A stretch of DNA of 64,000 nucleotides from Klebsiella phage Roth37. The position numbers were made by a program, and so were the translations under genes. The stretch lies in the sequence record PQ657803.1; one strand, 5' to 3'. The notes under the pieces were generated by a model. It worked only from the letters and a program-made list of their open reading frames with translations, searched no databases and was not told the origin of the DNA. This document shows, one piece after another, positions 11,465 to 12,062 of this stretch (position 1 is its first letter; the number at the start of each line of letters is the position of its first letter).

Positions 11465-11474
11465 TTGAACACTT

Positions 11475-11505
11475 AGACCAGGGGATTATCCTCTGGTCTT
11501 TTCTA
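11475..11505 (+). terminator. Rho-independent terminator (AGACCAGG...CTGGTCT + UUUCU)
   Basis: 7-8 bp stem followed by a T-run, directly after the stop at 11464. Confidence 0.5.
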
Positions 11506-11546
11506 TGCTTAAACCCAGTTACCTACCACGTATTTAAATATTTTAC

Positions 11547-11575
11547 TTGCAATCTCGCCACGATTTTTATATAAT
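11547..11575 (+). promoter_or_regulatory. Promoter TTGCAA-N17-TATAAT, about 490 nt upstream of the next ATG
   Basis: Hexamers with a 17-nt spacer. Followed by a long ORF-free region. Confidence 0.5.
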
Positions 11576-12062
11576 ATATTCATAGGTTGAGAGAAATGAT
11601 GTGAGTTACAAAACTGACATAATTCCTCTCATTCACTTCCGAGTATACAGAACAGTCCGGCTGCTACATGCTTGGTTGGGTTTGGCTTATTGGGAAATTG
11701 ATTCCGAACGGAATTATAGATAATTGATCTAGAATGCGGGTAAGAGAGGTTGGCATAGCGAGGCTCTCAGATATTTGTTCGTTAGTCATGTGGAGCAAAT
11801 AGCACCGCGGTCTGAAATGACCAAGAAGTGAAGCTGTAAGTAGCAACGTACCTCTGCGCAATAGCGACGAATAGGGGTCAACCACATGGAGCTTAGCGGC
11901 GATTACATGCTGTGTGGGAGTTGTGCGAAGCGGCCAGTTCTAGCAATGAGGAAGTGACCATCCCTCCATCTATAAGGAAATTTGTTGAGTCAGTGGACTT
12001 TTAAGCTGTTCTATCCTTGATAGTTCGAGATCGCTTTATTCTTCAACATAGGAGAAAACGTA

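Follow-up and report, generated by a model that had tools for sequence, protein, structure and literature searches.

A large folded RNA very probably fills the gap ahead of the D2-type helicase gene in T5-like phages

RNA between the promoter of a replication gene and its start codon is known from the P4 alpha-operon leader with its CI RNA, from IncFII repA and IncI-alpha repZ, and from the T4 gene 32 and gene 43 operators, and these leaders have conserved secondary structure. The locus described here, which is part of a window of 64,000 nt from Klebsiella phage Roth37 (PQ657803.1; "the window" denotes this whole stretch), shares both properties, and stems covering the Shine-Dalgarno (SD) sequence are predicted in some lineages. 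In contrast to those leaders, the RNA in this block is several-fold larger and more complex and has no antisense promoter, and its SD-covering stems shift in position between lineages. ColE1 RNA II, T4 oriF and oriG, and the T7 primary origin likewise have a promoter-driven, non-coding, G-rich transcript of ~500 nt beside replication genes; ColE1 RNA II is ~550 nt long, and its specific fold is essential. Unlike these origins, the block has neither an AT-rich unwinding element nor an RNA I-type antisense gene. Herpesvirus oriS and oriL lie next to UL9, whose Herpes_ori_bp helicase core is shared by the protein encoded downstream of the block; however, the palindromic boxes and AT spacer of oriS and oriL are lacking here, and the block is conserved in the manner of an RNA. 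Few large RNAs of bacteria and phages combine many covarying helices with long-range closures, and those that do have historically proved to be ribozymes or ribonucleoprotein cores. GOLLD, ROOL, HEARO, OLE and raiA belong to the same size class (~400-500 nt) and have many covarying helices, long-range closing helices and conserved purine-rich junctions, as found here, and GOLLD and ROOL are associated with phages. The present RNA differs from all five in giving no covariance-model (CM) match and in its fixed D2-leader context, which is not beside tRNAs.

The phage of the window is a Sugarland-like Klebsiella phage (Demerecviridae). At 598 bp, the interval 11465-12062 is the largest stretch of the 64-kb window free of ORFs (≥80 aa, either strand), the runner-up among internal stretches being 341 bp, which bears out the original prediction that a non-coding gap of anomalous size precedes the helicase gene. 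As had also been noted, the only sizeable ORF between 11465 and the ATG at 12063 is a single one of 73 aa on the minus strand; all plus-strand ORFs are ≤40 aa. The following features border the gap.

11475..11505, plus strand: intrinsic terminator with an 11-bp stem, 6 G-C pairs and a T-rich tail
11547..11575, plus strand: sigma-70 promoter with -35 TTGCAA, -10 TATAAT (11570-11575) and an upstream A/T-rich tract
12039..12062, plus strand: ribosome-binding-site region with SD AGGAG at 12050-12054, covered by a predicted hairpin (12039-12044/12051-12056)
12063..14852, plus strand: SF2 helicase gene, homologue of T5 D2 (T5.108), 929 aa, annotated 'replication origin binding protein'

Both the terminator and the promoter that had been proposed from the sequence were present. 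The terminator stem (11 bp, 11475-11499) is followed by TTTCTATGCT and closes an upstream early operon (two DUF7415 genes); its position is kept in T5, DT57C, Spc35, DU_PP_V, My1 and KEY, and the T5 and Sugarland records annotate a terminator at the matching position. The promoter, TTGCAA-N17-TATAAT, is a 10/12 match, from which the transcription start is placed at ~11582. Such a match alone is not above chance, 10 promoter-like sites being found in 7 kb versus 11.6 expected. The promoter is credible because its distance to the helicase gene is conserved, with TTGC..N17..TATAAT located 503-528 nt before the helicase start in ~40 related phages (nearly all T5-like loci), and because the T5 GenBank record (NC_005859) annotates the homologous site as a promoter with a terminator before it. 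In the T5 record, this promoter is followed by the CDS, with nothing annotated between them. The literature searched held neither a transcriptome nor a start-site map for a phage of the T5 family.

The order of terminator, promoter, gap and helicase gene is shared by T5, DT57C, Spc35, T5-like Salmonella and E. coli phages and Sugarland-like phages, as well as by Pectobacterium phages My1 and DU_PP_V, Erwinia phage KEY and Pantoea phage AAS21; the gap in relatives is ~470-500 nt and carries no conserved ORF. Alignment with T5-like genomes, which had been suggested as a way to separate conservation of sequence from conservation of position, gave a divided answer: position and fold are kept, whereas the sequence is only 45-50% identical to the window. 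The leader length is nearly constant (472-498 nt in most phages), and the distance from the start site to a UUAGCGG motif is 300-312 nt across phages. Metagenome scanning yielded one new lineage only, termed L052; a scan of IMG/VR with a two-anchor DNA pattern lacked stringency, most of its matches being due to chance.

In the genome records examined, the block is either blank or carries spurious ORFs of 30-40 aa. The annotation of such ORFs in several GenBank records, together with the 73-aa minus-strand ORF, could be taken to indicate a decayed or mis-framed protein gene or a set of small genes, to which we give practically no chance. The lineages share no ORF in frame or position, many stops interrupt every frame (6-21 stop codons per plus frame of the block in the lineages compared), there is no conserved reading frame, and the longest ORFs (26-73 aa) vary in strand, frame and position from lineage to lineage. 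Block length is conserved but sequence is not, and the substitutions track base-pairing, not codon structure. A check across lineages for a conserved protein-coding homologue, which the original prediction had named as evidence against itself, found none.

The original prediction had also pointed to GC-rich segments capable of stable folding. The folding energy proved not to be above chance (MFE z = -0.88 for the 483-nt transcript; -0.65 for the minus strand), and the evidence for structure is therefore the comparison between phages. An energy advantage of 13-45 kcal/mol for the plus strand was dropped as evidence of strand, because coding controls were equally asymmetric and the advantage is thus compositional.

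For this comparison, 16 transcripts were aligned with MAFFT from sequence only (alignment A4). RNAalifold gave 56 pairs, 36 of which had compensatory changes, the structure having been derived from the same alignment that was used for counting. In A4, 92.5% of the cells in paired columns were paired (76.5 ± 0.9% in shuffles), 37 of the 56 pairs had changed on both sides (21.9 ± 2.3 in shuffles), and the covariation score was 0.495 (0.213 in shuffles); none of 500 shuffles matched A4 for paired cells, both-sided pairs or covariation score. Controls in which partners were slid by 1-3 columns had 33-47% of cells paired and scores of 0.05-0.11. Since MAFFT sub-alignments misplace helix strands where loop lengths differ, CM-based alignments were used for sub-domains. 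Models R1 and R3 were built from the T5A clade alone. R1 recovered DU_PP_V (E = 5e-6), L052 (5e-6), My1 (4e-5), T5B (~3e-4) and the window (1e-3, at 11875-11976), and in the alignment based on it (A8), which like other CM alignments leans towards the model structure, 97.5% of cells were paired and 8 of 8 pairs of helix Hb were compensatory. R3 recovered KEY (2e-18), DU_PP_V (3e-9) and My1 (3e-4), and the window in part (0.12); the R3-based alignment, with the same leaning, had 94.7% of cells paired and 13 both-sided pairs versus 5.2 in shuffles. Separate RNAalifold runs on two T5 sequence variants produced isomorphic folds. In paired columns, G.U outnumbered A.C by 173 to 16 in A4 and by 48 to 0 in A8, and the RNA is assigned to the plus strand because of this excess and because the promoter points rightwards.

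Taken from the original prediction as one of two options, the structured 5' leader or non-coding RNA has gained clear support: at least 11 helices, some of them long-range, are kept by compensatory changes in at least six lineages. Judged from the sequences, the block is a plus-strand structured RNA and not a decayed gene, because the shared fold covaries and models built from one clade recover other lineages. That the block encodes a functional structured RNA we regard as highly probable. Models R2 and R3 gave no significant match, with filters off, in Proteus phage Stubb, Serratia phage Kamaji, Vibrio phages phi3 and D145, Enterobacter phage KKP_3711 or Aeromonas phage AhSzw-1, so that homology can be claimed only within the T5, Sugarland, My1 and KEY groups. 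The helices and motifs of the RNA are as follows.

11589..11630, plus strand: P1, long 5'-terminal hairpin with arms 11589-11607 and 11612-11630 (inverted repeat I1)
11646..11664, plus strand: conserved motif ACAGAACAGUCCGGCUGC, holding a small hairpin (11653-11656/11660-11663)
11679..11721, plus strand: 5' strand of long-range helix P2 (11679-11693, 11697-11708, 11714-11721), pairing with 11968-12012
11968..12012, plus strand: 3' strand of P2 (11968-11975, 11981-11994, 11998-12012), pairing with 11679-11721
11723..11735, plus strand: 5' strand of long-range helix P5, core CUAGAA at 11729-11734, pairing with 11937-11947
11937..11947, plus strand: 3' strand of P5, UUCUAG at 11938-11943, pairing with 11723..11735
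11736..11833, plus strand: three-way-junction domain X1-X4, from folds of the window and, in other lineages, from R3
11736-11741/11802-11808, 11744-11754/11758-11768 and 11772-11780/11793-11801, plus strand: helices X1, X2 and X3, respectively, from window folds
11809-11812/11819-11822, plus strand: hairpin X4, followed by conserved AAGAAGUGAAG at 11823-11833
11882-11889/11910-11917, plus strand: helix Hb, which encloses Hc and is 100% paired in A8
11891-11893/11898-11900, plus strand: invariant hairpin Hc (GCU-UAGC-GGC) with loop UAGC at 11894-11897
11948..11966, plus strand: hairpin Hd with stem GAGG/CCUC and conserved loop AAGUGACCAUC

P1 appears in every single-sequence fold, and its arms vary in sequence yet pair in T5, DU_PP_V, My1 and KEY. 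This hairpin is peripheral and tolerates insertions, of 98 nt in DT57C-type phages and of a 116-aa ORF in Pantoea AAS21, with the core kept. The motif ACAGAACAGUCCGGCUGC is the best-conserved primary sequence of the 5' part; its hairpin (A4 helix 2) is 100% paired, with a single compensatory replacement of A-U by G-C, seen in the KEY-like lineage. A likeness of this motif to RNase P CR-V was considered and dropped, the order of elements being different and no CM match being obtained. P2, within which 11714-11721 and 11968-11975 form a perfect 8-nt complement (repeat I18), is found in the single-sequence MFE folds of T5A, T5B, DU_PP_V, My1 and L052 as a 19-31-bp helix joining the same regions, and nine pairs of A4 helices 4 and 5, which correspond to it, had changed on both sides. 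The window adopts the common fold within 4-6 kcal/mol of its MFE, and P2 forms there when P5 is imposed as a constraint, which raises the energy 4.6 kcal/mol above the MFE. Local hairpins that had been assigned by hand after an ACAGAAC motif were wrong; RNAalifold run per clade places these strands in the long-range P2.

The partners of P5 are CUACA/UGUAG, CUGCG/CGCAG, CUGUG/CACAG, CUGUA/UACAG and CUGCA/UGCAG elsewhere, and A4 helices 6-7 (P5) show both-sided changes in 7 of 8 pairs. Equivalents of the junction helices are recovered by R3 in T5A, KEY-like phages, DU_PP_V and My1; R3 aligns only X4 and GAAGUGA in the window, and X1-X3 there thus rest on folding and on comparison with T5B by eye. 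In the Hb and Hc part, CUUAGCGG is identical in all lineages. The Hd stem covaries (AAGUGG/CCACUU, GGGG/CCCC, AUAUGA/UCAUAU, UAAGGG/CCCUUA), and its loop consensus is AGUUGCCAC. A ligand or protein effector might make its contacts at the invariant UAGC loop and at the GAAG-rich junctions. With regard to the short motifs first noticed in the block, the TTGG-rich run at 11671-11695 is present, and the TAGCG(A/G)(G/C)G copies at 11756 and 11894 were confirmed, the third starting at 11862 instead of 11861. Three of the six matches to this motif in the window fall in the block; of these three, other phage lineages keep just the copy at 11894.

The 929-aa protein encoded downstream is 73% identical to T5-like proteins, and its Pfam Herpes_ori_bp match (residues 395-534) covers helicase motifs only. 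In the window, Stubb and DU_PP_V alike, nothing resembling a terminator separates the RNA from the helicase start codon, and the RNA would therefore be made as the 5' leader of the helicase mRNA. Besides the SD-covering hairpin of the window, such stems are predicted in DU_PP_V (11 bp) and L052 (5-6 bp); because their positions are not equivalent, they give only a hint of an expression platform. A long-range anti-SD pairing proposed by RNAalifold (A4 helix 1) was set aside: it probably arises because the 5' arm of P1 is SD-like, and P1 itself, a local hairpin, is a much stronger competitor. Proteus phage Stubb carries a second, perfect promoter immediately ahead of the helicase gene, where DU_PP_V has a promoter-like site; in some relatives the helicase may thus be expressed leader-free, which would fit an independent RNA better.

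Searches for known RNAs were negative. No Rfam 15 family (4227 families) matched the block at E up to 10, the T5, KEY and Spivey versions had no match at E up to 5, and the whole window had none at gathering scores; ARAGORN found no tRNA or tmRNA. The T5 'Rad' anti-retron factor was rejected as a candidate ncRNA, since it is a 189-aa protein encoded elsewhere. The ~450-nt RNA of T5 and its relatives thus appears undescribed, and fragments of it may be contained in a viral catalogue of 10,006 csRNAs.

For the role of this RNA, the reading that we prefer, and for which we consider the balance to be even, is that a folded RNA of ~430-480 nt is made as the leader of the D2 mRNA and controls D2 in cis; cis regulation of the D2 helicase as the function, taken by itself, is held slightly more tentatively. 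Host RNA polymerase would start at the conserved early promoter and move rightwards through the block into the D2-type helicase gene. The transcript would fold into the 5' hairpin P1 and then a central domain of ~300 nt, closed by the very long P2 and by P5 as a second long-range helix, and this domain would contain the three-way junction, hairpin Hc with its invariant UAGC loop, and a number of unpaired purine-rich (GAAG) segments. Cis control would set the amount and timing of D2 helicase, either through a phage or host factor that binds the conserved loops or through cleavage of the ~30-bp P2 helix by RNase III; by either route, accessibility of the ribosome-binding site or stability of the mRNA may be altered. 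To our knowledge, a length of ~400 nt far exceeds what any translational operator needs, and this counts against the cis-operator reading.

The same excess of complexity, with at least 11 helices, two long-range closures and invariant loops beyond those of known translational operators, would be expected of a large ncRNA acting in trans, whose central domain may be excised, for example by RNase III at P2, as a ribozyme, an RNP scaffold or a decoy for a host defence or a host RNA-binding protein, with the helicase neighbourhood merely giving early transcription. We regard this as a possible but distinctly less favoured explanation. The ~30-bp closing helix is a substrate of RNase III type at which cleavage may occur, the helicase-proximal promoter is perfect in Stubb and promoter-like in DU_PP_V, P1 accepts a 98-nt insert or a whole ORF with the core retained, and the lack of an Rfam match is shared with other orphan large RNAs before their description. 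However, no terminator or defined 3' end precedes the helicase gene, the element is confined to one genomic context, and the Stubb block is only a putative homologue of the RNA.

The position of the block also raises the question of an origin of replication, which the original prediction had put forward as its alternative to a leader or ncRNA. The locus is roughly central in the genome, at 48.5-48.9% in T5 and at ~52.5-53% in Sugarland, and Bourguignon et al. in 1976 reportedly placed a primary T5 origin near the genome centre by electron microscopy. G-rich transcripts favour stable RNA-DNA hybrids, and the transcript is rich in G over C, with a GC skew of +0.2 to +0.4 across 11650-11950, although neighbouring coding regions also show positive GC skew. 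The block could thus be an RNA gene and at the same time the primary T5-type origin, where a primer RNA or R-loop forms and D2 is loaded, a reading that we consider rather unlikely. The gene of the presumed initiator helicase adjoins a non-coding block into which a strong, conserved promoter directs transcription, as would be found at a transcription-primed origin, and ColE1 RNA II is of similar size and depends on a specific fold. In addition to the central position of the locus, amber mutants of T5 D2, a bipolar helicase, fail to synthesise DNA, and no sequence-level map of the T5 origin exists (PMC3632103). Against this, no AT-rich unwinding element lies downstream of the promoter (GC content per 100 bp is 0.42-0.54 across 11600-11950 and 0.38-0.39 at the 3' end, with ~0.45 in the window), and there is no conserved antisense promoter for a copy-control RNA. 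The cumulative GC skew, which had been suggested as a check for the origin, turns near 34-35 kb, not at the block; GC skew in phages mostly follows transcription. An origin acting purely at the DNA level, as a duplex platform for D2 or other initiators with transcription only activating it, is far less probable still. In addition to its central position next to a UL9-like helicase gene, the block offers GAAGTGA at 11825 and 11951, which recurs at 12126, three TAGCG(R)(S)G copies in 146 bp, and a 27-nt imperfect direct repeat (11658-11684 and 11897-11923); however, compensatory changes and abundant G.U pairs indicate a single-stranded fold, not duplex recognition sites, and the lineages do not share the full set of short motifs, a single one of the TAGCG copies being conserved elsewhere. 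No tandem or iterated repeats were found in the block by TRF, only weak two-copy direct repeats, and there is no AT-rich spacer.

The consequences of a leader RNA that controls D2, and of the alternatives, concern a founding model phage, T5, as well as Klebsiella, Salmonella, Erwinia and Pectobacterium phages that are therapeutic candidates. For annotation, small "hypothetical proteins" should no longer be called in the block. The RNA directly precedes the gene to which the start of DNA replication is attributed. Were it to control the helicase, it would be an unusually elaborate regulator of replication timing. A less likely possibility is that it represents a new class of large phage RNA acting directly in T5-type replication initiation, as a primer or R-loop RNA, a D2 cofactor or a loading platform; if so, the T5 origin would be located and RNA-dependent initiation would be revealed in a classic virulent phage. 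If the RNA is tied to the origin, where and how T5 replication starts would become directly testable.

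By comparative analysis, the ORF-free block at 11465-12062 was demonstrated to encode a conserved, non-coding, multi-helix RNA on the + strand, which is predicted to form the 5' leader of the mRNA for the D2 helicase; both its start site and its 3' end are inferred. The original prediction had described a terminator and a promoter here, and both were found, as a stem at 11475-11499 with a T-rich tail and as TTGCAA-N17-TATAAT at 11547-11575, the latter match being by itself at chance level when 7 kb were scanned. On the + strand no ORF in the block exceeds 40 aa, the - strand does carry the 73-aa ORF, and the gap is indeed anomalous: at 598 bp it is the largest ORF-free region in the 64-kb window, with an internal runner-up of 341 bp (ORFs of at least 80 aa, both strands counted). 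The next-largest such stretches lie at 27724-27925, 19087-19285, 63034-63374 and 6236-6542.

Within the Sugarland group (Demerecviridae, Sugarlandvirus), 76 Klebsiella phages match the block and its flanks at 97% identity or more. The gene starting at 12063 encodes a 929-aa product sharing 73% identity with the "replication origin binding protein" of T5-type phages, with a Herpes_ori_bp helicase core at residues 395-534, and its T5 counterpart is gene D2 (T5.108). T5 D2 is a bipolar SF2 helicase, and D2 amber mutants show no DNA synthesis; Wong et al. proposed D2 as the replication initiator and noted that T5 origins have never been sequence-defined (PMC3632103). Upstream of the block, two tandem paralogous genes of 133 and 131 aa (10671-11072 and 11069-11464) end at the terminator, each with a Pfam DUF7415 match (E about 1e-23); the second is named 'RNA-binding protein' in the Spivey record, and a PDB search returned no sequence relative. 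A functional link between these genes and the RNA is doubtful, because Erwinia phage KEY and Pantoea phage AAS21 lack them beside the RNA. The same early operon carries a Sir2-like gene of the NAD-dependent deacetylase family (9703-10536), intact in the window and in Sugarland; T5 has the Sir2 annotation on two separate CDS (T5.102 and T5.105), and Escherichia phage DT57C has a 273-nt sir2 CDS noted as defective.

Comparison with T5-like genomes revealed that the order of terminator, promoter, long non-coding stretch and helicase gene is kept, while overall the sequences are only 44-51% identical to the window. This layout is present in DT57C, Salmonella phage Spc35 and T5, in Pectobacterium phages DU_PP_V and My1, in KEY and AAS21, and in 33 IMG/VR and 10 metagenome loci. 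The distance from promoter to helicase start is 503-528 nt in nearly all of these loci, and an invariant UUAGCGG follows the inferred start site by 300-312 nt in most lineages and by 342 nt in L052, a KEY-like metagenome lineage. The T5 GenBank record annotates terminator and promoter and leaves the following 470 nt blank; other records place "hypothetical proteins" of 30-40 aa in the block. A conserved protein-coding homologue was looked for in six lineages, and frames and ORFs differed among them: each + frame contains 6-21 stop codons, and the longest ORFs vary in strand, frame and position, by which a decayed gene was ruled out. A two-codon mini-ORF, AUG AUG UGA, lies at 11596-11604 behind an SD-like GAGAG and is absent from T5.

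Demonstrated members of the RNA family come only from the T5/Epseptimavirus-like, Sugarland, My1/DU_PP_V and KEY/AAS21 groups. More distant relatives in the phage family (Proteus Stubb, Serratia Kamaji, Vibrio phi 3 and D145, Enterobacter KKP_3711 and Aeromonas AhSzw-1) have an ORF-poor gap of 430-1500 bp at the same place; covariance models R2 and R3 gave no significant match in these Proteus, Serratia, Vibrio, Enterobacter and Aeromonas phages, whose larger blocks may represent diverged forms of the RNA or be of another kind. The Stubb locus (L004) has two perfect 12/12 sigma-70 promoters (2205-2233 and 2935-2964), with no terminator between them, flanking a 700-nt ORF-poor block with a P1-like hairpin and a CCUUAGCGGG motif, where R2 and R3 matches are not significant. 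In distant Demerecviridae the helicase gene is preceded by still larger blocks, purine-rich, ORF-poor and 650-1500 nt long, as in the Vibrio T5-like phages (L178-L182, about 1100-1800) and in L008 (1683-2955) and L010 (991-2500); in L180-L182 a promoter-like TTGACA...TAAAAT lies inside the block, about 690 nt before the helicase start.

Stable folding had been anticipated from GC-rich segments, and thermodynamics cannot support that claim, since the 483-nt transcript folds with an ordinary energy (z = -0.88 for the + strand, -0.65 for the - strand). The evidence for structure comes from comparing phages. We collected 43 distinct transcripts, from inferred start site to start codon, and aligned 16 full-length ones by sequence only with MAFFT (alignment A4); RNAalifold returned 56 pairs, 36 of them with at least one compensatory change. 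In A4, 92.5% of cells were paired (shuffled, 76.5 +/- 0.9%), 37 pairs were changed on both sides (21.9 +/- 2.3) and the covariation score was 0.495 (0.213), values that none of 500 shuffles attained; with the 3' partners slid by 1-3 columns, 33-47% of cells were paired and the score fell to 0.05-0.11. The central 250 nt of T5-like phages exist in two sequence variants, T5A and T5B, for which RNAalifold separately yielded the same architecture. The long-range helix P2, whose arms lie about 100 nt from the 5' end and about 60-90 nt upstream of the start codon, appeared as a 19-31-bp helix in single-sequence MFE folds of T5A, T5B, DU_PP_V, My1 and L052. P5, the other long-range helix, covaries in columns anchored by conserved flanks, with CUAGAA/UUCUAG in the window and CUACA/UGUAG, CUGCG/CGCAG, CUGUG/CACAG, CUGUA/UACAG, CUGCA/UGCAG and CUACAC/GUGUAG elsewhere.

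Because the A4 structure was derived and counted on the same alignment, tests with models built from one clade were added, and these likewise bore out the proposed structured RNA. R1, built from five T5A sequences and a hand-written structure of the 3' core (Hb, Hc, Hd), matched on the + strand DU_PP_V (5e-6), L052 (5e-6), My1 (4e-5), T5B (about 3e-4), other Sugarland-group loci and window 11875-11976 (1e-3); in the derived alignment (A8) 97.5% of cells were paired and all eight Hb pairs were changed on both sides. R3, built from four T5A sequences of the three-way-junction domain, matched KEY (2e-18), DU_PP_V (3e-9), My1 (3e-4), L052 and AAS21, with 94.7% of cells paired and both-side changes in 13 pairs compared with 5.2 in shuffles. 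It misses T5B, whose centre is too diverged, and in the window lineage aligns only the X4 hairpin and a GAAGUGA motif (E 0.12), so that window helices X1-X3 are predicted from folding and by-eye comparison with T5B. Strand is indicated by the rightward promoter and by G.U outnumbering A.C in paired columns (173 vs 16 in A4, 48 vs 0 in A8), and only 74.6% of cells pair when these columns are read on the opposite strand. Lower + strand folding energy was dropped as strand evidence; coding controls from the window are equally asymmetric, which makes it a compositional effect. Enforcing only the covariation-supported helices P5, Hb, Hc and Hd gave -133.5 kcal/mol, compared with an unconstrained MFE of -139.1.

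Elements of the proposed fold in the window (+ strand; paired arms separated by a slash)
11589-11607 / 11612-11630, P1
11646-11664, conserved ACAGAACAGUCCGGCUGC
11679-11693 / 11998-12012, 11697-11708 / 11981-11994 and 11714-11721 / 11968-11975, P2
11723-11735 / 11937-11947, P5
11736-11741 / 11802-11808, X1
11744-11754 / 11758-11768, X2
11772-11780 / 11793-11801, X3
11809-11812 / 11819-11822, X4
11823-11833, AAGAAGUGAAG
11882-11889 / 11910-11917, Hb
11891-11893 / 11898-11900, Hc, with loop UAGC
11948-11951 / 11963-11966, Hd
12039-12044 / 12051-12056, predicted local stem that would mask the SD
12050-12054, SD AGGAG

DT57C-type phages carry a 98-nt insertion next to P1, flanked by a UUUUUCUU duplication (DT57C, L003, about 2450-2550), and AAS21 (L177, 429-776) has a 116-aa ORF in the P1 apical loop, the core being unchanged in both; as judged from these variants, P1 is a tolerant peripheral element and an insertion hotspot. 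The SD-like 5' arm of P1, which in the window holds the mini-ORF, would serve as the ribosome-binding site of the AAS21 ORF. An imperfect 27-nt direct repeat (11658-11684 and 11897-11923, 70% identical) joins the segment after a small GGCUG hairpin to that after the UAGC hairpin, and a similar pair, GGCUGCCCCAUUAAGGGUUGU and GCGGCCAUCCUCAAGGAUUUGU, was seen by inspection in the T5 transcript; together these suggest internal duplication of a hairpin-plus-strand module. The TAGCG(R)(S)G copies pointed out earlier (11756-11763, 11862-11869 and 11894-11901) are three of the six window matches and lie inside 146 bp. The Sugarland lineage has UAGCG in three hairpin loops, only the third copy being conserved elsewhere; T5A has a second CUUAGCG immediately 5' of P5.

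Rfam 15 contains no family matching the block at E up to 10 or the T5, KEY or Spivey versions at E up to 5, and gave no match to the window at gathering scores; a tRNA/tmRNA scan found none. Full-text literature searches turned up neither an ncRNA or leader described for the T5 family nor a transcriptome. A catalogue from 2023, which lists 10,006 structured-RNA candidates from IMG/VR, could contain parts of this RNA; its text does not mention a helicase-leader context.

The block had also been proposed as a replication origin. Tandem and iterated repeats are absent from it, as are an AT-rich unwinding block (core GC 0.42-0.54) and a conserved antisense promoter, and cumulative GC skew does not turn there; it turns at about 34-35 kb. 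The skew maximum and sign change at about 34000-36000 probably mark where rightward early genes give way to leftward late ones, rather than a replication signal. A purely DNA-level origin is very improbable, given these absences and a covariation with G.U pairs unexpected for duplex protein-binding sites. An RNA-primed origin, with the block RNA as a primer resembling ColE1 RNA II or T4 oriF, seems unlikely against the same lack of DNA-level signatures; the locus does adjoin the presumed initiator gene, lies at 48.5-48.9% of the T5 genome and has a predicted strong promoter driving a predicted G-rich transcript, all of which would suit such a primer.

Most likely, the RNA would work by controlling D2 expression in cis, and no terminator was found between it and the helicase start in the window, Stubb or DU_PP_V. 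A processed, trans-acting RNA is a serious rival, with a modest share of the probability, because the element is much larger than known operators, the position of the SD-covering stems is not conserved, and Stubb has its second perfect promoter directly before the helicase gene. Under cis control, a factor might bind the GAAG-rich junctions or the invariant loop UAGC, or the long P2 duplex might be cut by RNase III, and either event may change ribosome-binding-site access or mRNA stability.
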